The notes beneath the pieces were generated by a model. That model made no database searches. It had not been told where the DNA came from and saw only the letters and a program-made list of their open reading frames with translations. This document shows, piece by piece, positions 40,001 through 64,000 of a stretch of DNA of 64,000 nucleotides. Every line of letters begins with the position of its first letter. Position 1 is the stretch's first letter. The DNA is from Nemertoderma westbladi (lineage: Eukaryota; Animalia; Xenacoelomorpha), in NCBI GenBank assembly GCA_032718475.1, contig JAUCBJ010003233.1, positions 8,742 to 72,741 on the forward strand, given 5' to 3'. The position numbers and the translations under genes are program-made.

Positions 40001-43000
40001 TCGGAGTCTGAGGCGGCAGATGAGATGACAATGTCGATGTCGGACTCAGAGGCGGCTGATGAGATGACAATGTCGATGTCGGACTTAGAGGCGGCTGATG
40101 AGATGACAATGTCGATGTCGGAGTCTGAGGTGGCAGATGAGATGAAAATGTCGATGTCGGACTTAGAGGCGGCTGATGAGCTGACAATGTCGGAGTCTGA
40201 GGCGGCAGATGAGATGAAAATGTCGATGTCGGATTCAGAGGCGGCTGATGAAATGACAATGTCGATGTCGGACTAAGAGGCGGCTGATGACATGACAATG
40301 TCGATGTCGGACTCAGACGCGGCTGACGAGATGACAAAGTCGATGTCGGACTCAGAGGCGGCTGATGAGATGACAATGTCGATGTCGGACTCAGAGGCGG
40401 CTGATGAGATGACAATGTCGATGTCGGACTAAGAAAAGAGGCGGCTGATGAGATGACAATGTCGATGTCTGAGTCTGAGGCGGCAGATGAGATGACAATG
40501 TCGATGTCGGACTCAGAGGCGGCTGATGAGATGACAATGTCGATGTTGGACTAAGAGGCGGCAGATGAGATGACAATGTCGATGTCAGACTCAGAGGCGG
40601 CTGATGGGATGACAATGTCGATGTTGGAGTCTGAGGCGGCAGATGAGATGACAATGTCGATGTCGGACTCAGAGGCGGCTGATGAGATGACAATGTCGAT
40701 GGCGGAGTCTGAGGCGGCAGATGAGATGACAATGTCGATGTCGGACTCAGAGGCGGCTGATGAGATGACAATGTCGATGTCGGACTTAGAGGCGGCTGAT
40801 GAGATGACAATGTCGATGTCGGAGTCTGAGGCGGCAGATGAGATGACAATGTCGATGTCGGACTCAGAGGCGGCTGATGAGATGACAATGTCGATGTCGG
40901 ACTAAGAGGCGGCAGATGAGATATGACAATGTCGATGTCGGACTCAGAGGCGGCTGATAAGATGACAATGTCGATATCGGAGTCTAAGGCGGCAGATGAG
41001 ATGACAATGTCGATGTCGGACTCAGAGGCGGCTGATGAGATGACAATGTCGATGTCGGACTTAGAGGCGGCTGATGAGATGACAATGTCGATGTCGGAGT
41101 CTGAGGCGGCTGATGAGATGACAATGTCGATGTCGGACTCAGAGGCGGCTGATGAGATGACAATGTCGATGTCGGACTCAGAGGCGGCTGATGAGATGAC
41201 AATGTCGATGTCGGAGTCTGAGGCGGCTGATGAGATGACAATGTCGATGTCGGACTCAGAGGCGGCTGACAAGATGACAATGTCGATGTCGGACTCAGAG
41301 GCGGCTGATGAGATGACAATGTCGATGTCGGACTCAGAGGCGGCTGATGAGATGACAATGTCGATGTCGGACTTAGAGGCGGCTGATGAGATGACAATGT
41401 CGATGTCGGAGTCTGAGGCGGCAGATGAGATGACAATGTCGATGTCGGACTCAGAGGCGGCTGATGAGATGACAATGTCGATGTCGGACTAAGAGGCGGC
41501 AGATGAGATATGACAATGTCGATGTCGGACTCAGAGGCGGCTGATAAGATGACAATGTCGATATCGGAGTCTGAGGCGGCAGATGAGATGACAATGTCGA
41601 TGTCGGACTCAGAGGCGGCTGATGAGATGACAATGTCGATGTCGGACTTAGAGGCGGCTGATGAGATGACAATGTCGATGTCGGAGTCTGAGGTGGCAGA
41701 TGAGATGAAAATGTCGATGTCGGACTTAGAGGCGGCTGATGAGCTGACAATGTCGGAGTCTGAGGCGGCAGATGAGATGAAAATGTCGATGTCGGATTCA
41801 GAGGCGGCTGATGAAATGACAATGTCGATGTCGGACTAAGAGGCGGCTGATGACATGACAATGTCGATGTCGGACTCAGAGGCGGCTGACGAGATGACAA
41901 AGTCGATGTCGGACTCAGAGGCGGCTGATGAGATGACAATGTCGATGTCGGACTCAGAGGCGGCTGATGAGATGACAATGTCGATGTCGGACTAAGAAAA
42001 GAGGCGGCTGATGAGATGACAATGTCGATGTCTGAGTCTGAGGCGGCAGATGAGATGACAATGTCGATGTCAGACTCAGAGGCGGCTGATGAGATGACAA
42101 TGTCGATGTTGGACTAAGAGGCGGCAGATGAGATGACAATGTCGATGTCAGACTCAGAGGCGGCTGATGGGATGACAATGTCGATGTTGGAGTCTGAGGC
42201 GGCAGATGAGATGACAATGTCGATGTCGGACTCAGAGGCGGCTGATGAGATGACAATGTCGATGGCGGAGTCTGAGGCGGCAGATGAGATGACAATGTCG
42301 ATGTCGGACTCAGAGGCGGCTGATGAGATGACAATGTCGATGTCGGACTTAGAGGCGGCTGATGAGATGACAATGTCGATGTCGGAGTCTGAGGCGGCAG
42401 ATGAGATGACAATGTCGATGTCGGACTCAGAGGCGGCTGATGAGATGACAATGTCGATGTCGGACTAAGAGGCGGCAGATGAGATATGACAATGTCGATG
42501 TCGGACTCAGAGGCGGCTGATAAGATGACAATGTCGATATCGGAGTCTGAGGCGGCAGATGAGATGACAATGTCGATGTCGGACTCAGAGGCGGCTGATG
42601 AGATGACAATGTCGATGTCGGACTTAGAGGCGGCTGATGAGATGACAATGTCGATGTCGGACTCAGAGGCGGCTGATGAGATGACAATGTCGATGTCGGA
42701 CTTAGAGGCGGCTGATGAGATGACAATGTCGATGTCGGAGTCTGAGGTGGCAGATGAGATGAAAATGTCGATGTCGGACTTAGAGGCGGCTGATGAGCTG
42801 ACAATGTCGGAGTCTGAGGCGGCAGATGAGATGAAAATGTCGATGTCGGATTCAGAGGCGGCTGATGAAATGACAATGTCGATGTCGGACTAAGAGGCGG
42901 CTGATGACATGCCAATGTCGATGTCGGACTCAGAGGCGGCTGACGAGATGACAAAGTCGATGTCGGACTCAGAGGCGGCTGATGAGATGACAATGTCGAT

Positions 43001-46000
43001 GTCGGACTCAGAGGCGGCTGATGAGATGACAATGTCGATGTCGGACTAAGAAAAGAGGCGGCTGATGAGATGACAATGTCGATGTCTGAGTCTGAGGCGG
43101 CAGATGAGATGACAATGTCGATGTCGGACTCAGAGGCGGCTGATGAGATGACAATGTCGATGTTGGACTAAGAGGCGGCAGATGAGATGACAATGTCGAT
43201 GTCAGACTCAGAGGCGGCTGATGGGATGACAATGTCGATGTTGGAGTCTGAGGCGGCAGATGAGATGACAATGTCGATGTCGGACTCAGAGGCGGCTGAT
43301 GAGATGACAATGTCGATGGCGGAGTCTGAGGCGGCAGAAGAGATGACAATGTCGATGTCGGACTCAGAGGCGGCTGATGAGATGACAATGTCGATGTCGG
43401 ACTTAGAGGCGGCTGATGAGATGACAATGTCGATGTCGGAGTCTGAGGCGGCAGATGAGATGACAATGTCGATGTCGGACTCAGAGGCGGCTGATGAGAT
43501 GACAATGTCGATGTCGGACTAAGAGGCGGCAGATGAGATATGACAATGTCGATGTCGGACTCAGAGGCGGCTGATAAGATGACAATGTCGATATCGGAGT
43601 CTGAGGCGGCAGATGAGATGACAATGTCGATGTCGGACTCAGAGGCGGCTGATGAGATGACAATGTCGATGTCGGACTTAGAGGCGGCTGATGAGATGAC
43701 AATGTCGATGTCGGAGTCTGAGGTGGCAGATGAGATGACAATGTCGATGTCGGACTTAGAGGCGGCTGATGAGCTGACAATGTCGGAGTCTGAGGCGGCA
43801 GATGAGATGACAATGTCGATGTCGGACTCAGAGGCGGCTGATGAGATGACAATGTCGATGTCGGACTTAGAGGCGGCTGATGAGATGACAATGTCGATGT
43901 CGGAGTCTGAGGTGGCAGATGAGATGACAATGTCGATGTCGGACTTAGAGGCGGCTGATGAGCTGACAATGTCGGAGTCTGAGGTGGCAGATGAGATGAA
44001 AATGTCGATGTCGGATTCAGAGGCGGCTGATGAAATGACAATGTCGATGTCGGACTAAGAGGCGGCTGATGACATGACAATGTCGATGTCGGACTCGAGG
44101 CGGCTGACGAGATGACAATGTCGATGTCGGACTTAGAGGCGGCTGATGAGATGACAATGTCGATGTCGGAGTCTGAGGCGGCAGATGAGATGACAATGTC
44201 GATGTCGGACTCAGAGGCGGCTGATGAGATGACAATGTCGATGTCGGACTAAGAGGCGGCAGGTGAGATGACAATGTCGATGTCGGACTCAGAGGCGGCT
44301 GATGAGATGACAATGTCGATGTCGGACTAAGAGGCGGCAGGTGAGATGACAATGTCGATGTCGGACTCAGAGGCGGATGATGAGATGACAATGTCGATGT
44401 CGGACTCAGAGGCGGCTGATGAGACGACAATGTCGATGTCGGACTCAGAGGCGGCTGATGAGATGACAATGTCGATGTCGGACTAAGAGAAGAGGCGGCT
44501 GATGAGATGACAATGTCGATGTCGGACTTAGAGGCGGCTGATGAGATGACAATGTCGATGTCGGACTAAGAGGGGGCTGATGAGATGACAATGTCGATGG
44601 CGGACTCAGAGGCGGCTGATGAGATGACAATGTCGATGTCGGACTTAGAGGCGGCTGATGAGATGACAATGTCGATGTCGGAGTCTGAGGCGGCGGATGA
44701 GATGACAATGTCGTTGTCGGACTCAGAGGCGGCTGATGAGATGACAATGTCGATGTCGGACTAAGAGGCGGCAGGTGAGATGACAATGTCGATGTCGGAC
44801 TCAGAGGGGGATGATGAGATGACAATGTCGATGTCGGACTCAGAGGCGGCTGATGAGACGACAATGTCGATGTCGGACTCAGAGGCGGCTGATGAGATGA
44901 CAATGTCGATGTCGGACTAAGAGAAGAGGCGGCTGATGAGATGACAATGTCGATGTCGGACTTAGAGGCGGCTGATGAGATGACAATGTCGATGTCGGAG
45001 TCTGAGGCGGCCGATGAGATGACAATGTCGATGTCGGACTAAGAGGCGGCAGATGAGATGACAATGTCGATGTCAGACTCAGAGGCGGCTGATGGAATGA
45101 CAATGTCGATGTTGGAGTCTGAGGCGGCAGATGAGATGACAATGTCGATGTCGGACTCAGAGGCGGCTGATGAGATGACAATGTCGATGTCGGAGTCTGA
45201 GGCGGCAGATGAGATGACAATGTCGATGTCGGACTAAGAGAAGAGGCGGCTGATGAGATGACAATGTCGATGTCGGACTTAGAGGCGGCTGATGAGATGA
45301 CAATGTCGATGTCGGAGTCTGAGGCGGCAGATGAGATGACAATGTCGATGTCGGAGTCTGAGGCGGCTGATGAGATGACAATGTCGATGTCGGACTCAGA
45401 GGCGGCTGATGAGATGACAATGTCGATGTCGGACTCAGAGGCGGCTGATGAGATGACAATGTCGATGTCGGAGTCTGAGGCGGCTGATGAGATGACAATG
45501 TCGATGTCGGACTCAGAGGCGGCTGACAAGATGACAATGTCGATGTCGGACTCAGAGGCGGCTGATGAGATGACAATGTCGATGTCGGACTCAGAGGCGG
45601 CTGATGAGATGACAATGTCGATGTCGGACTTAGAGGCGGCTGATGAGATGACAATGTCGATGTCGGAGTCTGAGGCGGCAGATGAGATGACAATGTCGAT
45701 GTCGGACTCAGAGGCGGCTGATGAGATGACAATGTCGATGTCGGACTAAGAGGCGGCAGATGAGATATGACAATGTCGATGTCGGACTCAGAGGCGGCTG
45801 ATAAGATGACAATGTCGATATCGGAGTCTGAGGCGGCAGATGAGATGACAATGTCGATGTCGGACTCAGAGGCGGCTGATGAGATGACAATGTCGATGTC
45901 GGACTTAGAGGCGGCTGATGAGATGACAATGTCGATGTCGGAGTCTGAGGTGGCAGATGAGATGACAATGTCGATGTCGGACTTAGAGGCGGCTGATGAG

Positions 46001-49000
46001 CTGACAATGTCGGAGTCTGAGGCGGCAGATGAGATGAAAATATCGATGTCGGATTCAGAGGCGGCTGATGAAATGACAATGTCGATGTCGGACTAAGAGG
46101 CGGCTGATGACATGACAATGTCGATGTCGGACTCAGAGGCGGCTGACGAGATGACAAAGTCGATGTCGGACTCAGAGGCGGCTGATGAGATGACAATGTC
46201 GATGTCGGACTCAGAGGCGGCTGATGAGATGACAATGTCGATGTCGGACTAAGAAAAGAGGCGGCTGATGAGATGACAATGTCGATGTCTGAGTCTGAGG
46301 CGGCAGATGAGATGACAATGTCGATGTCGGACTCAGAGGCGGCTGATGAGATGACAATGTCGATGTTGGACTAAGAGGCGGCAGATGAGATGACAATGTC
46401 GATGTCAGACTCAGAGGCGGCTGATGGGATGACAATGTCGATGTTGGAGTCTGAGGCGGCAGATGAGATGACAATGTCGATGTCGGACTCAGAGGCGGCT
46501 GATGAGATGACAATGTCGATGTCGGAGTCTGAGGCGGCAGATGAGATGACAATGTCGATGTCGGACTCAGAGGCGGCTGATGAGATGACAATGTCGATGT
46601 CGGACTTAGAGGCGGCTGATGAGATGACAATGTCGATGTCGGAGTCTGAGGTGGCAGATGAGATGACAATGTCGATGTCGGACTTAGAGGCGGCTGATGA
46701 GCTGACAATGTCGGAGTCTGAGGCGGCAGATGAGATGAAAATGTCGATGTCGGATTCAGAGGCGGCTGATGAAATGACAATGTCGATGTCGGACTAAGAG
46801 GCGGCTGATGACATGACAATGTCGATGTCGGACTCAGAGGCGGCTGACGAGATGACAAAGTCGATGTCGGACTCAGAGGCGGCTGATGAGATGACAATGT
46901 CGATGTCGGACTCAGAGGCGGCTGATGAGATGACAATGTCGATGTCGGACTAAGAAAAGAGGCGGCTGATGAGATGACAATGTCGATGTCTGAGTCTGAG
47001 GCGGCAGATGAGATGACAATGTCGATGTCGGACTCAGAGGCGGCTGATGAGATGACAATGTCGATGTTGGACTAAGAGGCGGCAGATGAGATGACAATGT
47101 CGATGTCAGACTCAGAGGCGGCTGATGGGATGACAATGTCGATGTTGGAGTCTGAGGCGGCAGATGAGATAACAATGTCGATGTCGGACTCAGAGGCGGC
47201 TGATGAGATGACAATGTCGATGTCGGAGTCTGAGGCGGCAGATGAGATGACAATGTCGATGTCGGACTCAGAGGCGGCTGATGAGATGACAATGTCGATG
47301 TCGGACTTAGAGGCGGCTGATGAGATGACAATGTCGATGTCGGAGTCTGAGGCGGCAGATGAGATGACAATGTCGATGTCGGACTCAGAGGCGGCTGATG
47401 AGATGACAATGTCGATGTCGGACTAAGAGGCGGCAGATGAGATATGACAATGTCGATGTCGGACTCAGAGGCGGCTGATAAGATGACAATGTCGATATCG
47501 GAGTCTGAGGCGGCAGATGAGATGACAATGTCAATGTCGGACTCAGAGGCGGCTGATGAGATGACAATGTCGATGTCGGACTAAGAGGCGGCAGATGAGA
47601 TATGACAATGTCGATGTCGGACTCAGAGGCGGCTGATAAGATGACAATGTCGATATCGGAGTCTGAGGCGGCAGATGAGATGACAATGTCGATGTCGGAC
47701 TCAGAGGCGGCTGATGAGATGACAATGTCGATGTCGGACTTAGAGGCGGCTGATGAGATGACAATGTCGATGTCGGAGTCTGAGGTGGCAGATGAGATGA
47801 CAATGTCGATGTCGGACTTAGAGGCGGCTGATGAGCTGACAATGTCGGAGTCTGAGGCGGCAGATGAGATGACAATGTCGATGTCGGACTCAGAGGCGGC
47901 TGATGAGATGACAATGTCGATGTCGGACTTAGAGGCGGCTGATGAGATGACAATGTCGATGTCGGAGTCTGAGGTGGCAGATGAGATGACAATGTCGATG
48001 TCGGACTTAGAGGCGGCTGATGAGCTGACAATGTCGGAGTCTGAGGTGGCAGATGAGATGAAAATGTCGATGTCGGATTCAGAGGCGGCTGATGAAATGA
48101 CAATGTCGATGTCGGACTAAGAGGCGGCTGATGACATGACAATGTCGATGTCGGACTCGAGGCGGCTGACGAGATGACAATGTCGATGTCGGACTCAGAG
48201 GCGGCTGATGAGATGACAATGTCGATGTCGGACTCAGAGGCGGCTGATGAGATGACAATGTCGATGTCGGACTAAGAAAAGAGGCGGCTGATGAGATGAT
48301 AATGTCGATGTCTGAGTCTGAGGCGGCAGATGAGATGACAATGTCGATGTCGGACTCAGAGGCGGCTGATGAGATGACAATGTCGATGTTGGACTAAGAG
48401 GCGGCAGATGAGATGACAATGTCGATGTTGGAGTCTGAGGCGGCAGATGAGATGACAATGTCGATGTCGGACTAAGAGGCGGCTGATGAGATGACAATGT
48501 CGATGTCGGAGTCTGAGGTGGCAGATGAGATGACAATGTCGATGTCGGACTTAGAGGCGGCTGATGAGCTGACAATGTCGGAGTCTGAGGATGCAGATGA
48601 GATGACAATGTCGATGTCGGACTCAGAGGCGGCTGATGAGATGACAATGTCGATGTCGGACTTAGAGGCGGCTGATGAGATGACAATGTCGATGTCGGAG
48701 TCTGAGGTGGCAGATGAGATGACAATGTCGATGTCGGACTTAGAGGCGGCTGATGAGCTGACAATGTCGGAGTCTGAGGTGGCAGATGAGATGAAAATGT
48801 CGATGTCGGATTCAGAGGCGGCTGATGAAATGACAATGTCGATGTCGGACTAAGAGGCGGCTGATGACATGACAATGTCGATGTCGGACTCGAGGCGGCT
48901 GACGAGATGACAATGTCGATGTCGGACTCAGAGGTGGCTGATGAGATGACAATGTCGATGTCGGACTCAGAGGCGGCTGATGAGATGACAATGTCGATGT

Positions 49001-49398
49001 CGGACTAAGAAAAGAGGCGGCTGATGAGATGACAATGTCGATGTCTGAGTCTGAGGCGGCAGATGAGATGACAATGTCGATGTCGGACTCAGAGGCGGCT
49101 GATGAGATGACAATGTCGATGTTGGACTAAGAGGCGGCGGATGAGATGACAATGTCGATGTTGGAGTCTGAGGCGGCAGATGAGATGACAATGTCGATGT
49201 TGGACTAAGAGGCGGCAGATGAGATGACAATGTCGATGTTGGAGTCTGAGGCGGCAGATGAGATGACAATGTCGATGTCGGACTCAGAGGTGGCTGATGA
49301 GATGACAATGTCGATGTCGGAGTCTGAGGCGGCAGATGAGATGACAATGTCGATGTCGGACTCAGAGGCGGCTGATGAGATGACAATGTCGATGTTGG
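34039..49398. repeat. 39-bp satellite array (~390 monomers) with higher-order structure
   Basis: Consensus gaggcggctgatgagatgacaatgtcgatgtcggactca; recurrent +5, +2 and -6 bp variants. Confidence 0.98.
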
Positions 49399-51009
49399 TG
49401 TTCGCGGTATTTCAACTTTCCATAACGCGAGTTGAATATTTTTGTATTTATTTAAAATTGATTATTCCGATATTACTACTGGGTGCGGGACCATGGGTTT
49501 TGGGCACATTCAATAAACTGGGGGCGATTTATGGGCGAACTTTGGGGCAACTTACAGGGTACGGGAATAATTTCATAGTTATAAGGGCCAGGGGGGATGG
49601 AAAATGCAAGCAGTATTCAGGTTAGCCTGAGTACTATTAGGCCCTGGCCAACTTCCTGCTGCCTGTAGGGGTGGATTTGGTAATGCGCCAGGCCTAAAGG
49701 ACAAGGACTGCCCTTAGCGGTCCCTGGCCAACAGCAGCCATTACGAGACTGAAAAGAACTCGGACCGCTGACTGCTTGTGTCAGGGATTTGCGACGGGCA
49801 CCGACGGCCCCTTAGTAGCCAAGCCGTTCTGGTTCTCGATGATCGTTCCCTTCGGGGTTCGTGAGGGGTGGAGCGGACACGCGAACGGGTGGCCAACTAA
49901 CGACTGCCCCCTGACCTAAGCCGTACTGGTTCTCGATGACCGATCCCTTCGGGGTTCGTGAGGGGTGGGACGGACATGCGAAAGGGCTGGCCACAGGACG
50001 GGTTTGACGAGAACTGCCCTTAGCGGTCTCTGGTCAACGGCAGCTACTACGAGACTGAAAAGAACTCGGAACGCTGACTGCTTGTACTGGGATTTGCGAC
50101 GGGAACCGACGACAGACCCCTTAGCCAAGCCGTACTGGTTCTCGATGATCGTTCCCTTCGGGGTTCGTGAGGGGTGGAACGGACACGCGATGGGGTCGAA
50201 AGACAAAGGACTAGACTCGACTAGACTCTACAGGCCTACCGACTGTTCGGAACAGTTTCTCGGCTGCCGAAGCGACTACGAGCCTGAAAGGGACTCGGAA
50301 AGCCTAGGTGGTTGGGTTTCTGCGATGAAACGACGGACCCCTAGCCAAGCCGTTCTGGTTCTCGATGATCGAACCCTTCGGGGTTCGTGAGGGGTGGAAC
50401 GGACACGCGAACGGGTCCACCGACATGACAGACTCCTAGCCAAGCCGTACTGGTTCTCGATGACCGATCCCTTCGGGGTTCGAGAGGGGTGGTACGGATA
50501 CGCGACAGAGTCTACCGACTGGACCGACCCTTAGCCAAGCCGGGCTGGTTCTCAATGATCGTTCCCTTCGGGGTTCGTGAGGGGTGGAACGGACACGCGA
50601 CAGGGTCGACCGACACTGACACTACGGCACTAAGACTAGGACCGAGGGAAAATCTGGGGAATATTAGGTAGGCTAAAATTCTGAGCAAACAGTGGGTAAT
50701 TAAATAATATACTGTAGGGATTTATATTATCGTGTATAATTATTGTGAATATTTGGTGTATATTGATTTGGGGAAGCCCAAAATTATTCTTAATCAAGTT
50801 TCAATGATGTTGAACAGGTTTCAACTATAGGAAGTTACATTAAAGAGTATATCCAACTAATGCAGCTTTTTATCAACCGCAAACTTGCATCTCAGAAAAC
50901 ATTCCCTCCCCACAATCAATATCCGGTGACTGGCCGGGGCTCGGTGGTCTGTTAAGTCACGTCTCCAGCATCGGCGTTTTTCCCCCCTGGTGTAGGGATA
51001 ACGGCAACA
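49399..51009 (+). repeat. 5' LTR (1611 bp)
   Basis: tgttcgcgg...ggcaaca; about 9 substitutions vs the 3' LTR by eye. Confidence 0.97.
49824..50592 (+). ncRNA. Array of six 53-nt K-turn/cUUCGg hairpins (5' LTR copy)
   Basis: CCGUWC UGG UUCUC GAU GA YCG..CCC UUCG GGG..CG U GA GGGG UG GWACGG at 49824, 49921, 50130, 50350, 50445, 50540. Confidence 0.75.
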
Positions 51010-51011
51010 AA

Positions 51012-51024
51012 ATTAAGAATAATT
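51012..51024 (+). promoter_or_regulatory. Atypical primer-binding site complementary to LTR 50782-50794
   Basis: ATTAAGAATAATT lies 2 nt after the LTR and is the exact reverse complement of AATTATTCTTAAT; no TGG tRNA-type PBS next to the LTR. Confidence 0.6.
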
Positions 51025-51260
51025 CATGCGGTTAATTTTGACAGGGTGTCAAAATTAAGGATAATTACGGTCAACTTCAACTGGTGGAAGTTGAGAATCC
51101 TTCAATACTCTTCAAAAACTCTCTACGTGCTTGCCAGCACCCACTACGAGGAAACTCTGGTATTTGAGTTGAGACAAAGTCGTGGTTTAATTAAGCAACA
51201 AACTCGATCTAACCAACTCGTAGTCGGCAGATCACATATTTGGAGAGTTGTTAACAGGGA

Positions 51261-51452
51261 ATGGAAGTATCGATCACACCCATTGATATAATTCAAGTTG
51301 AGCCAGGAATCTGGCACGTCGAAGTTGAGGTACAAGGAACGAACGTTGGACGATTCAGGATTACTGTTCGGGTGGTCCAAGCTGAGTACAATACCTACGA
51401 GGAACTGTTTTACGACATCGCGTATCTAGCCATCGATGAGGCGTTACAATGA
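51261..51452 (+). CDS. 63-aa upstream ORF overlapping the gag start (ATGA)
   Basis: Its TGA stop overlaps the gag ATG at 51449-51452; alternating beta-strand pattern followed by an acidic helix. Confidence 0.5.
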   Translation: MEVSITPIDIIQVEPGIWHVEVEVQGTNVGRFRITVRVVQAEYNTYEELFYDIAYLAIDEALQ

Positions 51453-54400
51453 CAACAAATAACGTATCCGATACCGACGAGATGGATCACCACACAGACT
51501 CGGAAGCCGACGAGGTACCAAACGTCAAGAACATGACCCGTCGGTTAGGGGCTCTTAAAGGCGGAGTAACCCGAGCGTATCAACGGATGGAGAAACAACT
51601 CAAGGGAGTCAAAACCCCCCTCAATGAGGTACAAACTCAGCTTCAAAGTATCCGAAATATCCTACAGCGGTACGAAAGAATGATACAGGCGTACCAAGAG
51701 CTCGTTCCCCCCACCGATCAGGAAAACTACCCCAAGTTGGAAGAACACGTTGTACATCTAGATGGGTTCCGCAAACAACACCGGAGGACCCTCAGTCTTG
51801 TGAGAGGCTATGAGGAACAGTATTACAAGAGGGCTGACGCGGAATCAGTACGATCCTCCAGCATCAGGACAACAGTACATCGAAAGAGAACGGGGTCCGC
51901 TAGAAATCAGCACTCCAGCGCTAGGAGCGAGATATCCGGCTCGGCGCGCAGTTCTCAAGGGGCGCCGCCACTCCGAGACCAACTGTGAGAACGGAAGGCA
52001 TTAGCCCTCAAAGCTCGGATGGAAGATGAGTATATTCAACTGCAAGCCGAGCAAGATGTATTAGCCGCCGAAACACAAAAGCGAGAGGCCGAACAAGCGG
52101 CCGAACGGCAGGCCGAACAACGTGAACAGGAGGCCGAACAACATAGACGAGAGGCCGAACGGCAGGCTGAACAACGTGAACAGGAGGCCGAACAACATAG
52201 ACGAGAGGCCGAACGACAGGCCGAACAACATAGACGGGAGGACGAACGACAGGCCGAACAACGCAAACAGGAGGCCGAACAACATAGACGAGAGGCCGAA
52301 CGACAGGCCGAACAACATAGACGGGAGGACGAACGACAGGCCGAACAACGCAAACAGGAGGCCGAACAACATAGACGAGAGGCCGAACGACAGGCCGAAC
52401 AACATAGACGGGAGGACGAACGACAGGCCGAACAACGCAATCAGGAGGCCGAACAACGCGGACGAGAGGCCGAACGAGAGATCGAACAACGTAAATGGGA
52501 AGCGGAAATGCGTAAACAACACGCCGAGGCCCAAGCAATTCTCATCCACAAAAAGAATGCGGACATTGCAAAACTCGCAGAATACGAAGCCGCACTTATC
52601 GAACGAGATATTCAACTCTACGAGGACTGGGAAAGGGATATAGATAAGGAATATGAACCAATTCCGGTACCGGAGTTAGAAAAGTCATTTACACCAACAG
52701 CGGCGAAACCTCCGAAACCCGAGATCCCGCCTACCAAACAGTCTACGCTATCGGCACAAGCCCCGGTGTTCCATCCCCCACCAGCTACGCTAAAGAATGA
52801 GGAACCTTATTTCCCATCCAACACCACGACAGCGAGTGTACCCAAGTACGAGCCTGAAAGGGACTCGGAACGGGACGCCACTCCCCGATCTAACAACCCA
52901 TTTACATCCACACCACAAACTCGTAGCCGCGTCATTATTAAAACTCCACCTATTATTGATCCATCAAGTATGGGAGTGAGTGCTAATAACTATAACCCTC
53001 CGAGTCACTCTAGTTCAGACGACGTCAGCATCATCCGGGCGTTGGAGAACCGCCTTGCCATGCCTAAGATGGAGATTCGCACCTTCGAAGGAGATCCCGT
53101 CGATTACCTCAGATTCAAGAAACGGTTCTTTGCGCAGATCGGATCAACGGACATAGCCGACACACAGAAATTGGTATATTTATCGCAATACCTGGGTGAC
53201 AAACCACGCAGAATTGTTGCATGTTTTGAAGGAGGTTCTCATGAGGCATACTATGACGCATGGAAAACCCTAGATAAAAGATACGGAAATACCGGAACTA
53301 TAATTAATAAAACTCTAGAGAGACTGATACAGGACGCGGGATCACTAGGGGACCCACAGAACATACAGGAATTCTCCGACTCTATGAAGGATGCATACTA
53401 TACTTTGAAACCCTTAAATAAGGAGGACCAGGTGAACAACATTCTAAACCTCCGACAGATCGCCAAGAAGTTCCCCGGATGGCTACAAAGTAAGTGGGCT
53501 TATAAATGTGTAGATCTCCGGCGCAGACATCCAGATCGAGATCCTAGCTTCCTTGAAATGTCGGCATTCCTGGACGATATCTCCGAAGCCATGAATGACT
53601 CAATGTTTTCAAAACAAAGTCTCGCAAAGTTGGACGGAATAGAGAGCAACTCCAGGAGTAAGATAACCCCTCCGAAACCGAGATTCCGCCCCCCACCGAT
53701 AAGTACGATGGCCATTACCATGGCCGAGGATTCCGACGACGAAGACTACGAGGAACCGACATCCGCCGAGGAATGGGCATGTTATCTCGCGAGTTGGGCA
53801 CCCGAAAGGGAAGGCGTCACAAATTCCCTGCTCTGTCTCTTCTGTGGGGAGAAACACAAAGTGGAATTCTGCAGAAAGTTTCAGTTCGCCGAACTCGTCC
53901 CACGCTTCGAGGCGATAATGAAACACCGAGGATGCTTCCGGTGTCTTGGAACAGGTCACTATGTTCGGGAGTGCGACCAAAGATCATGCTGTACAGTCTG
54001 TAACGACCAACGCCATCACACGCTCCTCCACATCCCCGCGAACTTCGATTTTACTACCCTCCCCTTTCGGATCGAAGCCAGGCGAAGAGGAGAAACAAAC
54101 CACATCTTCAAAGGAACCCGGACAACCCAACGGAGAGAAACCAACCCGTTTAAGATCTCCACCGATACACCACAAGTAACCAATATTTCGGCCACGATTA
54201 ATCTTATAAATCGCCGCTACATGGTTTTCGCAAAGGTAATCCCAGTAAGGATCCAAGGAGTCAGCAAATCTTTGACGACACTCGCGTTCCTCGATAACGG
54301 GTCTGACGGAACCATCATCGACCGGGATTTCCTCGAGCAACTCGGCCTAGAATATGAACCTTGTAAACGGCCCATACAAACCATCACCGATAACAGAGAA

Positions 54401-57400
54401 GTAGAGTCCGGGGAGGTACAACTCCAGATGGAAGGAGTGATGAAGGGCTACGAAACGGCTAAGTTAACCATCAAGAACGCCTTGGTACACACAGACCTCC
54501 GGGTGCGGTTCCGACAATCAGCCGAGTACGCCCCCCTCATACAATTGGACCGAGACGATGTAGACCTGAGGTGTCCGCAGTTGGACGTGAACCGTATCAC
54601 CCTACTGATTGGACTTGATACACCGGAACTACACATCCCCACCGGAGATATCGCTCGATCTATAAACCAGGATGATGGATTTTATGCTGAACGAACAATA
54701 ATGGGATGGACACTCTGCGGCATTAAGGAGGAAACTACGGACACCTATACCTACCTTCCTAAATGTCAGATTAAAGAGAATGTAACCTCTGTGGGTTATT
54801 GCTCAGCTTCAGATCTTGACGAGGATTTGTTCCTGGAAACCGAGAAAACCCAACGAGAGATGACGAAATATTTTAATTTGGAGACCCAGGAGTTCGCGGA
54901 AAAGGACGAAAACCCATCCGAAGAGGACCAATATTGTATGGACGTTCTCGACCAGGCCACGTTTAAAGACGGACATGGGTGTTCACCTATGTTATGGAAG
55001 GACCCAAACAAACCAATGGCAAACAACGCCAGCATGGCACTTAGGCGACTTAAAGGGATTCTACGCCGGCTGAATGACCAACCCGAGATAAAGGAGAAAT
55101 ATAATACCGTAATCCAAGGATATCTCGATGATGGATTAGCAGAAATGGTACCACGGAATGAACTGCAAGGTGGTGAAAGAACATATTATCTCCCAACCCA
55201 CTATGTAGTAGAAGCCCGCAAAGGTGGGAAAATCCGAGTGGTAAATGATGCTGCCGCTATGTACCAGGGCGAATCCCTAAACAGTCAACTTTACACGGGA
55301 CCCAACATATATAGCACACTCATTGGCGTATTGATCAGGTTCAGGGAAAACCGGGTAGCATTCACCTGTGACATCAAGGCCATGTTTCATCAAGTTCGTA
55401 CGTTACCAAGAGACTCGGACTGTCTACGTATCCTATGGACGGATAAAACACTCACTCAACAGGAGATTAGCCAACTCACGATCAAGGATGTAGACGTAAT
55501 GCGTATGGTCGTCAGGATCTTCGGCGCTAAGGACTCGCCGGTAGCATGCAGTGACATGCTAAAGAGGACAGCAACTATGTGCGAAAACGAGTTCCCTCCA
55601 ACCGTCATAGAAACCATTCGACGATGCTTCTACGTGGACGACGGATGCGCCGGCGCGGATAATGTGGATGAGGCATATCGGCTAGCAATGGGGATGGTAG
55701 AATGTCTGAAGAAAGGAGGGTTTCCGCTCGTGAAATTCAGATCCCACGACAAAACACTTAAGGAAAAGTTTCCGGAGGACATCCGGCTGGATAATAACAA
55801 GATGTATTCGGAGGATGTGGAACATCGTGTACTTGGGATTGAATGGGACATAGAATCAGACGAATTCATCTTCAAGTATAAACCCCTACCCAAGCCTATG
55901 ACAAAAAGGGGATGTTTGTCGATAAAAAGCGCCATCTTCGACCCACTAAATTTCATATCTCCAGTAACCTTGGCCGGAATGAACCTGATTAAGGAAATGT
56001 GGATAGAAGGACTGGGATGGGACGAAGAGCTCCCCCCATACCTCAGCGTCAAATGGAGAAAATGGACGGAGCAGCTCGAACACCTACATCTTATGCGGAT
56101 ACCTAGACCGTTCTTCCTCGATAAATTGCCCACCGATATCTTCCAGCTCCACACCTTTTCGGATGCTTCAAATACCGGAATCGGCGTAGTCACCTTCCTA
56201 CGGAGACTAAGTAATGATGGAAACGGCGATACAAGCTTCTTATTCTCCAAAGCAAAGACAGTATCCGGGGAATTCGTAGCAACGATCCCGAGACTCGAGC
56301 TACAAGCTGCAGTTTGGGCAGTAAGACAGAATCGCATGGTCATGCGGAATCTACGGATCCCCATAGAATCACAACACTTCTGGGTAGATTCGAGTATAGT
56401 TCTCTATTATCTCCACTCTCCATCACGGCGTCACACCACGTTTGTTGCAAACCGAGCCACGGAGATTAAACAGTGTACCGGCCGAGAACAGTGGCATCAC
56501 GTGAACGGGAAGGAAAACCCAGCGGACTTATCAAGCCGAGGCGCCACCCCAAAACAACTCGGTAAAAGTGAACTCTGGCTTACAGGCCCGGAATTCCTAC
56601 GGCAGCCACAATTAACATGGAGTACCCGATTCGACCCCGAGCTCGATAGCGGAAAATACTCCGAGGACGATAAAGAGATCCGTAAAATCCATCGAAGCAA
56701 CGCGGTGGAAATTTATAGTTGTCTGACTGAGCCTGCAAAGGACTCGGGCAGGCACTATAACGTCGCGACGATCACCCAACTAGCGGCGTCTTTACATCGG
56801 TTGATCGAGCGAACTTCATCCATGAGACGGCTCGTCCACCACGTTATAACCCTTCGCAACTTCCTACGGTGGAAAAACAACAAACCGATAGTTCAACGGA
56901 ATATACAAGAACTCATTATCGCGGAGAAGTGTATTGTTAGATATGTCCAGAAAGAAAGTTTCCCCGATGAATGGGAACAACTTAGTGCGGGCAAAACGTT
57001 GAAACCGGACAGCCCAGTCTACCAACTGAGACCAATGATGGGAGAGGACGGACTGATCCGACTGAATACCCGGATGGCAAACGCCCCGGTCCAATATGAG
57101 GTTAAATACCCAGCGCTTCTGCCCGGAACGTCGACACTAGCTAAGCTATTAATTCTACAATGTCACGAGGACAACCACCACGCAGGACAGAATTGGATTA
57201 TAGCTAATATAAGACAAAGATATTGGATCACCCACATCCAGCCACTGATCCGGAAAGTGTTGAAACGTTGCTTCACCTGCAGATGTTACCTAGCGCCACC
57301 AATCACCCAAAAGATGGCCGACTTACCAGCCACCCGTCTACAAGCGGATTCCCCACCATTCTACGTCACCGGAGTGGACTGTTTCGGACCGTTCACGGTT

Positions 57401-58336
57401 ATTGAACGACGATCCAACATCAAATGCTGGGGAGCCATCTTCACCTGCCTAAGATCTAGGGCAATTTACCTAGATATCGTGGTAAATCTGACACAACACG
57501 CATTCATCAACGCTCTGCGTCGGTTCGTGGCGAACAACGGGACATGCCGCCACATGTATTCCGATAATGGTACAAACTTTGTGGGAGGAGAAAGAGAACT
57601 TAGAGAGGCGATCGAGGGATGGTTTACCGATAACACTGCATCCCAAGTCTGGAAGGAACACCAGATACAGTGGCACTTCCAGACCCCCTTAGCACCCCAT
57701 ACGAGCGGGGTATGGGAGAAACTGATCGACCTAGTGAAACGATCCATGCGCGTCGCTCTAGGCGATACCCGGGTAACCCATGACACCCTCCGCACAACAT
57801 TCTGCGAGATCACGGCTACCCTGAACAACCGACCCATTGTTCCTATCCGCGACGACCCCACAGACCTGGAACCCCTCACTCCTAACCACTTACTGGGGAG
57901 ACCCAAAACCCACCTCCTCCCGGAAACCATGTTCCCGGATCCCAACGAGATCGCGAAACACACAAACTGGAAAAAGGCCCAAGCGTTGGCAGCGCATTGG
58001 TGGAGAATTTGGGCCCAGGAATACCTCATAACCCTCCGGACCAGGAGGAAATGGAACAACACCTACCGGAACGTCACAGTTGGCGACATGGTACTAGTTA
58101 AAGAAGATCTCAAAGACCGCGTTCACTGGCCTGTGGCGCGGGTCGTGACCATACACCCAAGCAAAGACGGACTTGCGAGGACTGTGACGATACGAACGAA
58201 ATCGGGCCACTACCAACGCCCCATCCAAAAGCTGTGCCTTCTTGAAGGCAATGATAGCGGTGATTCTACGAGAGGTGATAAGATCCCTACTCAAGATACT
58301 GCTGTGGACATCGGTGACAATGATAAATGTGTTTAA
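51449..58336 (+). CDS. Bel/Pao Gag-Pol polyprotein with a single in-frame TGA (51986-51988)
   Basis: ORFs 51449 and 52019 share a frame; FEGDPVDY, three Cys/His knuckles, protease LDNGS, RT YVDD, RNase H FSDAS, integrase GVDCFGP/SDNGTNF/WEKL. Confidence 0.93.
52085..52490 (+). repeat. Coding tandem repeat forming an E/R/Q-rich coiled coil in Gag
   Basis: Repeated gaggccgaacaacatagacga / cgacaggccgaacaa units (EAERQAEQHRR). Confidence 0.9.
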
Positions 58337-58616
58337 ACCCTTCTCATCATGTTGACAAACTCCTTTTAAACTGTGATTTATCGACAACGAGTTATGGACC
58401 CCCTTTAAACCAACTGTAACCACGCAATGGTATTTGTGTTTCCTCGTGTGTTATGTGGAGTCCAGCGTCACCCTGCAGATGTTTCGGCTGACGCAGGGTC
58501 GTTTATGCATTGTTTACCCTGATTTTGGTCATCAGGACCTACGATATTGGATTATTGGAAATGGAAAAGATTTGAAGTGGAATTCATTGTATTCATCGCA
58601 GTATGTTATGTTGTCC

Positions 58617-59032
58617 GTTGCGTGCGCAGTTCGGGGCGTAGGCGGTGTAACGAGTCCAGCTGTAGATCCCGGATCGCCGCGCAACACCCCCTCTATCCCG
58701 TTATTCTGGTGGGTCCATGGTGCATCCACATGACTTCGAAGATAGAGGGTTTTATGTTTCTCAGTCGCGTTATTCTGGTGGGACCGTTGCGTGGATTTTG
58801 GGGCGTAGGCGGTGTAACGAGTCCAGCTGTAGATCCCAGAATGTTGCGTAACCCCATCCCACATGACTTCGTCGACTGAGCTTTATGTTGTTGGGAGTGT
58901 TATTCTGGTGGGTCCATGGTGCATCCACGTGACTTCACTCTCAGCGTCTTCATTGTCCGTTACGTGCGCAGTTTGGGGCGTAGGCGGTGTAACGAGTCCA
59001 GCTGTAGATCCCAGATTGCCGCGTAACACCCC
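58617..59032 (+). ncRNA. Triplicated ~75-nt structured RNA in the pol-ORF2 intergenic region
   Basis: Copies at 58617, 58786, 58959 with invariant core ggggcgtaggcggtgtaacgagtccagctgtagatccc and a compensatory closing stem. Confidence 0.6.
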
Positions 59033-59581: not shown

Positions 59582-62182
59582 ATGGACCCAAATCGCCAAA
59601 TTATCGGCGAATTACGTAACACGATAGATCTACTGGAATATTCGCAACCCGGATCCCCTGACTTTGATACAAATTGGAACACTCTGCTAAATGAGAACGT
59701 GCGAGTCATTAAATTCACCGGGCGAGAGGGACCGGATTCTAAGAATCTACTAGCCCTCCGGTTAGCCGATGCTAGTACGAGACTGAAAAGAACTCGGAAC
59801 GCAAAGGCAACCGGAGGGGACGATTCGTCGTTTTGGGAAACGTTCCGGCAGAGCGTCTACAGATCCCGATGTTTGATCTACGACAACGAGGGAAACGCGA
59901 CGCCCACCTCAAAAGCGATTACGTTGGCGAGATGTCAAAGTTTCGTCGACGACAAGAGTACATACCTCGCCCACTGGGGAAACCTGTCGGAGTGTACGGC
60001 GACGCTTCGAGAGGAACGCATATCGATTATCCAAAACCGCGACGACTACCAGGAAAAGTACGGGGCGAAAGAATACGGTCGATCCTTAGTCGTCGTCCTC
60101 GGAACCCTGGACGGTTTGGTACTGGTGTGCCGAATATTCCCGACACCCAGACAGGAAGTGCAGACAGCCGGAGCGATCTGGTTGCTGCCTCCGGAAATCC
60201 AAAAGATCCTCTTCGACTTCGACGTCATTAAAATCGGGGCGGATATCAAGGCGGACGTCCGGAACGACTACGCGAACGCTCCTGCAGGAAGAAACCGACG
60301 AGACGACCTCAACGCCCTTAGCCATTGCATCGACACTCAAACGCTACTAGCCTGGGTACGATTCGCCGAGTTCATGCGAGGATTCCAAGAGGTGAGACCG
60401 ACGAAATCAGGGATCGGCTACCTCGCTGTGCTCAACGGCGGTATCGACTTCAAACCCCAGAAATTCCGGGACTATAATAAAATATATGGTGGATACCCGG
60501 GATTGGAAATAAAGAGCGAGCGAGAGGGTCGATGGAAGGACGTTGATCGGAAGTGGACGATACACCAAAGGTGGGAGAATCCCGATCGACGGAACTACGT
60601 TTACGTCGTTATGGAATGCTACACCGTCGCTAAGTTTATCTGTAAAACTCTAGATAACCTCATCACGGCGGTCCCCCTTTCCTTTGTCGACTACGACTGG
60701 AACGAGGTTATAAACCACGCGTTTAAAGCGGTCGAGAACATTACACCGGGAGAATCAAAAACGCCCGCCGTTATCGATTCCTGGGACGAGAGCGGACCTT
60801 ACGACATCCCTACGATTACCGAACTTCTCGGTGCGGAGGAGCCTCTGATCTCTTCGGAAGGAGAAGAGATATGGCTAAACGAGGGTGTTCTACTCTCCAC
60901 CCCGAAGCGACAACTCGAGCCGGAGGCCGCGTATGGACCGGCCGCCAAACGGGTTGCCTCGGCCGAACCGATGAAGAGAGCAGGCGTTTACACCCCACGC
61001 GGCTCTGGTAGCCCCACGAGGGAGGTGGCTACTACAGCTGCATTGAGCGACTTCGGCGACATATGCCAACGGTTATCCCCGTATCCTTTCCCGGGCGGCG
61101 AAGATTGGTCGTCGGAGATTCCGAGTACCAGCCACCAACGGACCCGCTCAGCGATACTGGTCGAGGAGGGCCCCAGCGATGCGCCGACACCCGACGATCT
61201 CCTCGGTATCCCTCCGTCGAAAACCCCGGCACCTCTTCGTCGACCAGCGGTGGCTACTACACCCGCCGTTCCTCAGGACCCTATGCGACTAACCCGTTGG
61301 TACGCCGAGCAAACTGAATGGATCCACCGCCAGAAACGGTCATCCGAGTTGAGACCAGCGGGACACAAAGAAGGTTATCGGAGCGAGAACCTACTACGCA
61401 AAAGCCTAGCATTCCGCGGGCTACCGACCACCGAGAATATTCCGAAGAGCGACCGACGACTCGAATACTACGTCGGCGTCCCGATTCCGATATTTCCTGG
61501 TCGAGAGATGCAGTTGGAGGTATGCGGCGACTGCGGTTCGGAGCAGTGCCCACGCAGCAGAAGGAATCGGGTTACCGATTCTTGCCTCCAGCTCCTCGGG
61601 ATACTCTATTGCCCATACTGCGCGACATCAGGCCACGACGTTTCCGTCTGCCCGATCCTTTATAACCTCTGCACCACGTGCGGTTTCCGTGGACATTCCT
61701 CTAGCCCCCGCTGCTATATCAAATGTCCAACCAAAGACGTTACCGCTATGGGAAATATGGTCATGTTTGAAACATACGCAAACAGCCACTTAAAGACCAA
61801 GATTCGGAGAAACGCTCGGAATATTGCGCAGGAGATGGCGTGTGGATATTTCTCCTTCCCGGAACGCCTCCACACGTCGGCCACGCTACCTTTCCATTAC
61901 GTGGATCTGCAACTGAGCGCCGGATTATTCGGTCCATTTGAAGTCATTAGACGATTATACTCGTATAAAGAGGAGTTCGGTGACGGAGAATGGTTCCTAG
62001 AGGCACGCAAATCTGAGTTGGAAAGACGAACCGACATGATCCCCATGCCTTCGAAAGGAAGAGCCGCCAGGAGACAAGCCGAAGCGTTACTCACGATGGA
62101 TGTTGACGCTCCTCTACCAGCCATAGCGATCGATGAGAGTCGACGGGCGAAGAGACGAAAGGCGTATCAGAGAAAGAAATAG
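59582..62182 (+). CDS. Accessory ORF2: DEDDy/WRN-like 3'-5' exonuclease domain plus CCHC zinc knuckles (866 aa)
   Basis: ExoI IYDNEG; LPPEIQKILFDFDVIKIGADIKAD (ExoII); CIDTQ; YVVMECY (ExoIII, E for D); CPYCATSGHDVSVC and CTTCGFRGHSSSPRC. Confidence 0.8.
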   Translation: MDPNRQIIGELRNTIDLLEYSQPGSPDFDTNWNTLLNENVRVIKFTGREGPDSKNLLALRLADASTRLKRTRNAKATGGDDSSFWETFRQSVYRSRCLIYDNEGNATPTSKAITLARCQSFVDDKSTYLAHWGNLSECTATLREERISIIQNRDDYQEKYGAKEYGRSLVVVLGTLDGLVLVCRIFPTPRQEVQTAGAIWLLPPEIQKILFDFDVIKIGADIKADVRNDYANAPAGRNRRDDLNALSHCIDTQTLLAWVRFAEFMRGFQEVRPTKSGIGYLAVLNGGIDFKPQKFRDYNKIYGGYPGLEIKSEREGRWKDVDRKWTIHQRWENPDRRNYVYVVMECYTVAKFICKTLDNLITAVPLSFVDYDWNEVINHAFKAVENITPGESKTPAVIDSWDESGPYDIPTITELLGAEEPLISSEGEEIWLNEGVLLSTPKRQLEPEAAYGPAAKRVASAEPMKRAGVYTPRGSGSPTREVATTAALSDFGDICQRLSPYPFPGGEDWSSEIPSTSHQRTRSAILVEEGPSDAPTPDDLLGIPPSKTPAPLRRPAVATTPAVPQDPMRLTRWYAEQTEWIHRQKRSSELRPAGHKEGYRSENLLRKSLAFRGLPTTENIPKSDRRLEYYVGVPIPIFPGREMQLEVCGDCGSEQCPRSRRNRVTDSCLQLLGILYCPYCATSGHDVSVCPILYNLCTTCGFRGHSSSPRCYIKCPTKDVTAMGNMVMFETYANSHLKTKIRRNARNIAQEMACGYFSFPERLHTSATLPFHYVDLQLSAGLFGPFEVIRRLYSYKEEFGDGEWFLEARKSELERRTDMIPMPSKGRAARRQAEALLTMDVDAPLPAIAIDESRRAKRRKAYQRKK

Positions 62183-62346: not shown

Positions 62347-63957
62347 TGTTCGCGGTATTTCAACTTTCCATAACGCGAGTTGAATATTTTTGTATTTATT
62401 TAAAATTGATTATTCCGATATTACTACTGGGTGCGGGACCATGGGTTTTGGGCACATTCAATAAACTGGGGGCGATTTATGGGCGAACTTTGGGGCAACT
62501 TACAGGGTACGGGAATAATTTCATAGTTATAAGGGCCAGGGGGGATGGAAAATGCAAGCAGTATTCAGGTTAGCCTGAGTACTATTAGGCCCTGGCCAAC
62601 TTCCTGCTGCCTGTAGGGGTGGATTTGGTAATGCGCCAGGCCTAAAGGACAAGGACTGCCCTTAGCGGTCCCTGGCCAACAGCAGCCATTACGAGACTGA
62701 AAAGACCTCGGACCGCTGACTGCTTGTGTCAGGGATTTGCGACGGGCACCGACGGCCCCTTAGTAGCCAAGCCGTTCTGGTTCTCGATGATCGTTCCCTT
62801 CGGGGTTCGTGAGGGGTGGAGCGGACATGCGAACGGGTGGCCAACTAACGACTGCCCCCTGACCTAAGCCGTACTGGTTCTCGATGACCGATCCCTTCGG
62901 GGTTCGTGAGGGGTGGGACGGACATGCGAAAGGGCTGGCCACAGGACGGGTTTGACGAGAACTGCCCTTAGCGGTCTCTGGTCAACGGCAGCTACTACGA
63001 GACTGAAAAGAACTCGGAACGCTGACTGCTTGTACTGGGATTTGCGACGGGAACCGATGACAGACCCCTTAGCCAAGCCGTACTGGTTCTCGATGATCGT
63101 TCCCTTCGGGGTTCGTGAGGGGTGGAACGGACACGCGATGGGGTCGAAAGACAAAGGACTAGACTCGACTAGATTCTACAGGCCTACCGACTGTTCGGAA
63201 CAGTTTCTCGGCTGCCGAAGCGACTACGAGCCTGAAAGGGACTCGGAAAGCCTAGGTGGTTGGGTTTCTGCGATGAAACGACGGACACCTAGCCAAGCCG
63301 TTCTGGTTCTCGATGATCGAACCCTTCGGGGTTCGTGAGGGGTGGAACGGACACGCGAACGGGTCCACCGACACGACAGACTCCTAGCCAAGCCGTACTG
63401 GTTCTCGATGACCGATCCCTTCGGGGTTCGAGAGGGGTGGTACGGATACGCGACAGAGTCTACCGACTGGACCGACCCTTAACCAAGCCGGGCTGGTTCT
63501 CAATGATCGTTCCCTTCGGGGTTCGTGAGGGGTGGAACGGACACGCGACAGGGTCGACCGACACCGACACTACGGCACTAAGACTAGGACCGAGGGAAAA
63601 TCTGGGGAATATTAGGTAGGCTAAAATTCTGAGCGAACAGTGGGTAATTAAATAATATACTGTAGGGATTTATATTATCGTGTATAATTATTGTGAATAT
63701 TTGGTGTATATTGATTTGGGGAAGCCCAAAATTATTCTTAATCAAGTTTCAATGATGTTGAACAGGTTTCAACTATAGGAAGTTACATTAAAGAGTATAT
63801 CCAACTAATGCAGCTTTTTATCAACCGCAAACTTGCATCTCAGAAAACATTCCCTCCCCACAATCAATATCCGGTGACTGGCCGGGGCTCGGTGGTCTGT
63901 TAAGTCACGTCTCCAGCATCGGCGTTTTTCCCCCCTGGTGTAGGGATAACGGCAACA
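62347..63957 (+). repeat. 3' LTR (1611 bp), including six K-turn hairpins at 62772-63540
   Basis: Near-identical to 49399-51009 at offset 12948. Confidence 0.97.
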
Positions 63958-64000
63958 GTTGGACTAAGAGGCGGCAGATGAGATGACAATGTCGATGTTG
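63958..64000. repeat. 39-bp satellite resumes
   Basis: gttggactaagaggcggcagatgagatgacaatgtcgatg continues the interrupted monomer. Confidence 0.95.

Follow-up and report, generated by a model that had tools for sequence, protein, structure and literature searches.

The DNA analysed here is a 64-kb window, taken from the forward strand of contig JAUCBJ010003233.1 of Nemertoderma westbladi, and all positions are those within this window. It contains a young, full-length BEL/Pao retrotransposon whose long terminal repeats (LTRs) carry an array of hairpins with the letter patterns of kink-turns (K-turns) and S-turns. We regard the insertion as young because the two LTRs, which have TG...CA ends, differ by 9 substitutions, the element is flanked by a 5-bp target-site duplication (TSD), and a G-rich polypurine tract is present. 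The features by which BEL/Pao elements are recognized (Pao-specific gag-pol domains, TG...CA LTRs and a TSD) were all found; the internal frame gave Pfam matches to Peptidase_A17 (E 6.7e-38), DUF1759 and DUF5641, together with protease and integrase zinc-finger matches, and the nearest pol proteins were ∼39% identical. BEL/Pao elements are metazoan (PMC3601003; this and the other papers below are cited for those portions of their text that were available). The main parts of the element, including a third open reading frame (ORF3), are as follows.

49394-49398 and 63958-63962: TSD, GTTGG
49399..51009, + strand: 5′ LTR, 1,611 nt, one end of the BEL/Pao element
51449..58336, + strand: gag-pol of BEL/Pao type, with Pfam matches
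59582..62182, + strand: ORF3, 866 aa, between pol and the 3′ LTR; N-terminal DEDDy/EXD-type exonuclease-like domain, low-complexity linker and CCHC zinc-knuckle domain
62347..63957, + strand: 3′ LTR, 1,611 nt, the other end; its copy of any 5′ LTR position lies at +12948

A sequence-only reading of this DNA had described an array of six K-turn hairpins in the LTR. The six K-turn-pattern units (K units) were all found where it had placed them and were repeated in the 3′ LTR, but the full array comprises nine units of two kinds, in the order B K K B K B K K K along the LTR, and hairpins of the second kind (B units) also occur in two coding regions.

49709..49800, + strand: B1, a long hairpin with an S-turn-like loop, CGAG/CUCG stem and GAAA tetraloop (z -5.3)
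49824..49876, + strand: K1, K-turn pattern with cUUCGg; the whole hairpin spans ∼49807-49893 and its basal loop is AGUA/GAA (S-turn-like)
49921..49973, + strand: K2, K-turn pattern; 3b.3n is C.U, and the basal loop CCUAAG/CAUGC is the nearest to the 11-nt GAAA receptor
50017..50103, + strand: B2, S-turn-like/GAAA hairpin
50130..50182, + strand: K3, K-turn pattern
50259..50316, + strand: B3, S-turn-like/GAAA hairpin whose core equals the gag copy at 23/23 positions
50350..50402, + strand: K4, K-turn pattern, the most stable (z -3.5)
50445..50497, + strand: K5, K-turn pattern; 3b.3n is C.A, with two-sided changes in the lower and outer helices
50540..50592, + strand: K6, K-turn pattern with an AAU bulge
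52841..52874, + strand: B-type hairpin in the gag coding sequence, with an AGUA/GAA loop and a CCC/GGG closing stem
59754..59818, + strand: B-type hairpin in the ORF3 coding sequence, with an unrelated 10-bp closing stem (z -5.5)

Each 53-nt K unit had the predicted architecture, namely a 3-nt bulge (GAU in five units, AAU in one), tandem G.A and A.G pairs, C-G and G-C pairs, and a CCC-UUCG-GGG cap. The U.U-type pair attributed to every unit was U.U at 3b.3n in four, with C.U and C.A in one unit each. Using a strict descriptor that combined a four-pair C-stem, the 3-nt bulge, GA/GA, two Watson-Crick pairs, and a centred cUUCGg stem, we obtained 12 matches on the + strand of the window (six per LTR), none on the - strand, and none when the 951-nt array was dinucleotide-shuffled 400 times; the rate for a loose K-turn descriptor was 0.245 matches per shuffle. 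The six copies arose by duplication, differing among themselves at 2-9 of 65 nt, so the strict result represents one unlikely motif rather than six. All six units of each LTR exhibited the sequence by which K-turns are recognized, a 3-nt bulge followed by tandem G.A and A.G pairs. The pairs -1b:-1n and 4b:4n are both C:G in 6/6 units, the C-stem reads C-G, U-G, C-G, U-G, and 3b.3n is never Watson-Crick. The G.A pairs are invariant across these units, which are paralogous copies only, and the 4-5 G-U pairs per unit favor the sense RNA as the folded strand.

These letters agree with published folding rules, according to which a Watson-Crick 3b:3n pair impairs K-turn folding, C at 3b favors it, and U:U is intermediate (PMC8191799), and C:G at positions -1 and 4 denotes the ion-folding class rather than box C/D (PMC5689011). 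The K units thus share with standard simple K-turns (Kt-7/riboswitch, or bound by L7Ae or L30e in mRNA; PMC8191799, PMC5689011, PMC6298567) the bulge, the G.A/A.G pairs, C:G at -1 and 4, a non-Watson-Crick 3b:3n and, possibly, protein-induced folding against a competing structure. They differ in that standard K-turns occur once per ribosome, riboswitch, or autoregulated leader, whereas here there are six tandem copies at a retroelement 3′ end, with two G-U pairs in the C-stem and a slipped register that is more stable. Box C/D K-turn and intronic K-loop RNAs (PMC5689011; 10.64898/2026.08.03.742641) likewise share the AUGAU/UGA core and, with four of the six units, U.U at 3b:3n, but the K units have C:G instead of G:C at 4b:4n and GUGA/GAGA where box D has CUGA. 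A box C/D snoRNA identity was rejected because no RUGAUGA lies on either LTR strand and 4b:4n is C:G throughout.

In the B unit, a GAAA tetraloop closes a CGAG/CUCG stem that sits on an S-turn-like internal loop. Its 23-nt core is identical at 20-23 of 23 positions across the five copies, of which the gag and ORF3 copies occupy different reading frames, while the 18-nt flanks share 3-15 positions. The gag copy, the ORF3 copy and K1 contain AGUA/GAA, which we take to be the S-turn letter pattern (A.A, extrahelical G, U.A handle and A.G); B1-B3 depart from it by having U or C as the extrahelical base. An S-turn-like descriptor matched five sites on the + strand and none on the - strand of one LTR plus the internal region, and a basal YUA-GC/GC-GA module is common to B1, B2, and the K units. 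Compared with shuffles, the ORF3 copy and B1 folded far better, which K1, K2, and the gag copy did not, and when covariance models of both unit types were run over the window, no additional copy was significant (next best E 0.085 and 0.23). Upstream of B1, at 49630-49700, a weaker tenth hairpin matched the S-turn descriptor and, at E 4.4, the K model; it is possibly a degenerate unit. The single-stranded linkers within 49801-50642 are GAC-rich (21 occurrences versus 5.0 expected, 0/2000 shuffles, the occurrences not being independent) and contain 10 DRACH motifs versus 4.7 expected; both could be N6-methyladenosine or RNA-binding-protein sites, and a search of the literature found nothing on the binding of serine/arginine-rich proteins to GAC repeats.

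The closest known counterpart of the B loops is the sarcin/ricin motif (S-turn, loop E) of rRNA and Pospiviroidae (PMC6633198), with which they share A.A, an extrahelical base, the U.A handle, and A.G, but in the B hairpins the stem above the loop is longer and ends in a GAAA tetraloop, and the LTR copies have C or U as the extrahelical base. We compared the lower loop of the K units with the 11-nt GAAA receptor: C2-G10, A4-A5, and A8 were present in 6/6 units, the core U3 was C in 5/6, and K2 had U3-A8 but C.C at 1-11. Most changes of A8-U3 are reported to abolish detectable GAAA binding (PMC10243134), so docking is not claimed and the canonical receptor was rejected; the available portion of PMC11571812 contains nothing decisive on this question.

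Selection on the RNA hairpins, as the sequence-only reading had supposed, was supported by arm-swap tests. Matched arms of the K outer helices paired better than swapped ones, ranking 2 of 720 permutations, and the B flanks were the best of 120 permutations at 18 nt and ranked 6/120 at 6 nt. Shuffles reached the observed percentage of paired bases in 1/500 cases for K and 5/500 for B, numbers of a kind that relatedness inflates. The pairing-preserving variants were real, with the stronger compensatory signal residing in the outer helices and the B units and not in the 53-nt core, for which covariation had been overstated: 16 of the 20 modelled pairs (65-nt core) never vary, and the variant pairs opposite the U.U positions show one-sided changes only.

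The place of the array in the transcript depends on the following sites.

49512..49517 (62460 in the 3′ LTR), + strand: AATAAA upstream of the array
50782..50794, + strand: putative self-primer, 13 nt, a perfect complement to the primer-binding site (PBS) position; probable transcript start
50839 (63787 in the 3′ LTR), + strand: ATTAAA, candidate signal of the R (repeat) region
51012..51024, + strand: PBS-position sequence, 2 nt past the 5′ LTR

None of 3000 shuffles reproduced the 13-nt match between self-primer and PBS, which makes a start near 50782 likely, as supposed earlier, and suggests ATTAAA at 50839 as the R signal. The structured array lies upstream of this start, which is taken solely from the self-primer match, and would accordingly fall in the unique 3′ (U3) region. 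Exclusive transcription of the array from the 3′ LTR is only as firm as that start; its presence in the 3′ end of the genomic RNA is not, since LTR replication places it there under any start model (copy at ∼62657-63560). The two poly(A) signals, AATAAA 5′ and ATTAAA 3′ of the array, bracket it, and because the former precedes it, RNAs ending at 62460 would be without the array. In the self-priming elements Tf1, Tj1, and sushi, too, the PBS position pairs with part of the LTR of the same element (PMC4600332, PMC6317226), here over 13 nt that begin 2 nt past the LTR end; such a match is a signature of priming without a tRNA. The present element differs in being BEL/Pao, the passages cited naming only Tf1/sushi, Tcn1, and some copia lineages. 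Just 3′ of the PBS, a perfect 12-bp hairpin at 51032-51066 (z -4.3) overlaps a near-identical second PBS copy (51050-51066), suggesting a possible switch between two primer sites, and a 17-nt inverted repeat (82%) at 50760-50776 and 50906-50922 spans the putative borders of U3, R, and the unique 5′ region.

Pfam named no domain in ORF3, and word-based protein searches found nothing. HMMER over representatives retrieved seven distant homologues, all unnamed or "hypothetical," that have the N-terminal domain and the C-terminal CCHC region in common with it or just one of the two; together with ORF3 they make up an unnamed family of exonuclease-like proteins with CCHC zinc knuckles. A profile from the ORF3 alignment matched the Lin28 zinc knuckles (E 0.0015) and, weakly, Egalitarian (E 0.21) and EXD2 (E 0.79). 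The model of the N-terminal domain, with a low predicted local distance difference test score (pLDDT 55), ranked EXD2, Rrp6, Nibbler, and the Egalitarian-K10 complex, with EXD1 among its neighbours; its best structural match had Z 6.0 (root-mean-square deviation 5.3, 113 aligned), the top rows were mostly DnaQ-type, and the best Foldseek E value was 0.011. In an alignment of ∼22% identity, a Gln of ORF3 aligns with the ExoI catalytic Asp of five homologues, and several homologues retain an acidic ExoI residue. The N-terminal domain is probably a pseudo-exonuclease, and ORF3 is a candidate RNA-binding accessory protein. For comparison, Egalitarian uses an exonuclease-type domain to hold bent stem-loops noncatalytically (PMC13186709), and in the literature searched nothing was found on Pao elements with an extra ORF and an exonuclease.

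We propose, at a probability of roughly 0.45, that the array is a multivalent 3′-end ribonucleoprotein scaffold by which full-length genomes are tagged for export, trafficking, or packaging, with L7Ae-family proteins on the K units and ORF3 on the B units. On this view, the full-length genomic RNA would present, at its 3′ end, a strip of nine hairpins on which proteins dock multivalently. The six K units would be the target of an L7Ae-family protein of the host, with Snu13/15.5K as the likeliest candidate, whose binding would turn each unit from the slipped helix described below into the kink; the S-turn/GAAA hairpins would be the target of the ORF3 protein, with its probable pseudo-exonuclease domain and its zinc knuckles. 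Since the first of the two poly(A) signals lies shortly before the array, an RNA would have to extend to R in order to include it; the array would thereby mark replication-competent genomes, as RcRE does in HERV-K, and is predicted to license their export, trafficking, or packaging. A narrower version, in which two components route the RNA, six K-turn switches loading Snu13/15.5K and the S-turn/GAAA hairpins of LTR, gag, and ORF3 being read by an Egalitarian-like pseudo-exonuclease with zinc knuckles, is in our estimate doubtful.

The closest known system is RcRE in the HERV-K U3, which is bound by the accessory protein Rec (PMC11379458). If the predicted start is right, it shares with the present array a structured RNA within U3; both also lie at the genomic RNA's 3′ end, in elements with an accessory gene whose product could bind there. 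RcRE is a single 433-nt element of a vertebrate retrovirus, whereas here nine modular K-turn- and S-turn-pattern hairpins belong to a BEL/Pao element with extra coding copies; Rec-type proteins are Rev-like peptides, whereas ORF3 is an 866-aa exonuclease-like/zinc-knuckle protein, and its role in export is predicted. Signals for Egalitarian-BicD, including the I-factor ILS (PMC13186709), and the BC1/ID GA motifs (PMC4033767) are likewise retroelement RNAs that use bent or G.A stem-loops as transport codes; the former are read partly by an exonuclease-homology domain of Egalitarian whose catalysis is dispensable (PMC13186709). Those signals are single or paired and read by the host, whereas the present element carries an array and encodes its own exonuclease-like protein. 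The BC1/ID motifs (PMC4033767) would be a looser parallel than RcRE.

Several observations weigh against the scaffold proposal, beginning with those that concern the kink. In 6/6 K units, ViennaRNA found a slipped register to be 4.0-7.1 kcal/mol more stable; in it the C-stem strand shifts by two bases, pairs with the second GA, and leaves a 5-nt bulge without a kink, and the pairs of its core vary no more than those of the K-turn core. When the 3′ LTR was folded to R, the UUCG-closing pair reached at least 0.97 in K4 only and at most 0.33 in the other five units, and the entire array folded no better than shuffles (z -1.2). The 53-nt core offers a single two-sided change (A-U versus U-A in K5), at a pair that is mismatched in 3/6 units, and all of the structural evidence comes from paralogous copies within one element. 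As to the protein, the fold matches of ORF3 lie below the confidence level (no Foldseek E ≤ 0.001; Z < 8), its full-length model failed (pLDDT 38), and its link to the hairpins is guilt by association. No homologous LTR was found in the metagenome, viral, or prokaryote collections searched. Finally, among 10 low-depth contig records of sequencing run X1, compared over 49399-59200 only, one joins K1 to K6 and skips 716 nt, which means either that most of the array is missing from that LTR or that the assembly collapsed across a stretch of 34 identical letters.

The ViennaRNA model has neither a K-turn nor a bound-protein term, and natural mRNA K-turns may stay unfolded until L7Ae binds (PMC6298567), so the slipped register lowers the claim of a kink but does not exclude it. 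Because that register is favored and only K4 keeps its UUCG hairpin, the kink may need bound protein or may never form. The K-turn consensus asserted by the sequence-only reading therefore holds for the letters of all six units, C:G rule pairs included, but is weakened for the kink itself; on balance we lean toward a kink that forms, at least in the protein-bound state.

The strongest alternative, which we consider unlikely, is that the hairpins are real and selected but that the K units are bent helices with a 5-nt bulge and no K-turn, whose shape would be what ORF3, Gag, or an Egalitarian-type host adaptor for transport reads. The 4-7 kcal/mol advantage and invariant core of the slipped register are what this explanation predicts, and Egalitarian-BicD does recognize bulged, bent stem-loops that include the I-factor signal (PMC13186709). 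It gives no reason, however, why the K units should agree with the K-turn consensus in the geometry of the bulge, in both GA steps, and in both C:G rule pairs. K5 loses one slipped-register pair (G.A), and the bulges of Egalitarian signals lie on the 3′ strand, whereas that of the K unit lies on the 5′ strand. In addition, a single X1 contig, of which one strand is displayed, contains a diverged K unit whose visible flank retains the outer pairing and whose CCU before the bulge would break the slipped register but keep the K-turn stem.

Returning to the role of the array, a shield or decoy is quite unlikely as an alternative to the scaffold. Here hairpins and protein would protect the RNA 3′ end from 3′-5′ decay or small-RNA silencing, or would sequester Snu13, and ORF3 would be an active or dominant-negative nuclease. 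Nine hairpins near the RNA 3′ end would suit such a function, as would the fold neighbours Nibbler, EXD1, and Rrp6 and the acidic ExoI residue kept by several homologues, but single B hairpins deep within gag and ORF3 are left unexplained, and this copy of ORF3 apparently is without the first catalytic Asp. Slightly less probable still, the K units might control RNA processing, their second strand resembling a splice donor, such that free units attract U1, which keeps the upstream AAUAAA from being used, and units bound by 15.5K are masked. The string UUC|GUGAGG is present in 5/6 K units, AATAAA lies ∼300 nt upstream of the first of them, the yeast L30e K-turn includes a splice site (PMC6298567), and K-loops bound by 15.5K affect intron excision (preprint 10.64898/2026.08.03.742641). 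Yet any unit with the letters of the K-turn consensus would automatically contain GUGAG, the resemblance to a donor is poor on the exonic side, K5 has no donor string, and a simple pattern found no strong acceptor.

An explanation at the DNA level is improbable. It would make the array a set of tandem U3 duplications, neutral or serving as enhancer sites, with folding inherited from one ancestral palindromic unit. This would account for K units that are 2-9/65 nt apart and partly tandem (period 95), for the unremarkable whole-array z, and for GAC-rich linkers that could be a DNA site (21 versus 5.0 expected). Against it, the diverged arms remain mutually complementary by arm-swap, the G-U pairs, tetraloops, and motif descriptors are strand-specific, and the coding-region copies gained new, unrelated closing stems. 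A single long stem looping out the array was rejected, there being no such inverted repeat. A self-cleaving ribozyme, for example a permuted hammerhead held by a K-turn, is hardly credible, and the hammerhead was rejected in any permutation, because the CUGANGA block required in hammerheads (PMC10085705) is missing from both LTR strands and no Rfam ribozyme matched.

The comparison of the units with Rfam that had been suggested earlier returned only 1 and 2 sub-threshold chance matches and gave no known family. A pattern scan of metagenomes yielded 24 loci, with the K-turn second strand in 0/24; two pattern scans of viral contigs gave 0 and 0 matches, and prokaryote genomes gave three Streptomyces matches, none with the C-stem. 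Queries of the viral contigs with pol, protein P0121, and the pol alignment confirmed no relative.

The U3 of an LTR is usually regarded as a promoter, DNA in which little structure is conserved. Structured U3 elements are already known; a K-turn array in an LTR element was not found described in the literature searched (titles and the starts of abstracts, most subscription papers lying outside its coverage). The array is real and unusual, the evidence for its structure is good within the one element, and its function is predicted. If the proposal is true, nine RNA modules in U3, one of them re-used in two genes, would imply strong selection on retrotransposon RNA architecture, a natural multivalent K-turn array would be a candidate new class of ligand for Snu13/15.5K, and the uncharacterized exonuclease-like zinc-knuckle family of ORF3 would acquire an RNA target. 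Were the two-component reading also true, a Rev/RRE-like system would have been built from ribosomal-type motifs in an invertebrate-type retrotransposon.

Several other features of the locus were observed. An in-frame stop codon within gag, at 51986-51988, is the sole interruption of the gag-pol frame, and an 87-nt tandem repeat at 52085-52490 of gag encodes a Glu/Arg/Gln-rich stretch that is probably a coiled coil. Between pol and ORF3, at 58611-59035, an 83-nt unit that is invariant over a core of ∼35 nt occurs three times and a 26-38-nt unit two or three times; these repeats folded no better than shuffles and had no Rfam match. The element sits inside a 39-nt satellite of ∼393 copies with strong G skew (34039-49395 and past 63957). 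Elsewhere in the window, an ORF at 16543-17613 gave a weak RAG1 match (E 0.00015, below the cut-off) and is possibly the remnant of a Transib/RAG-like transposase.

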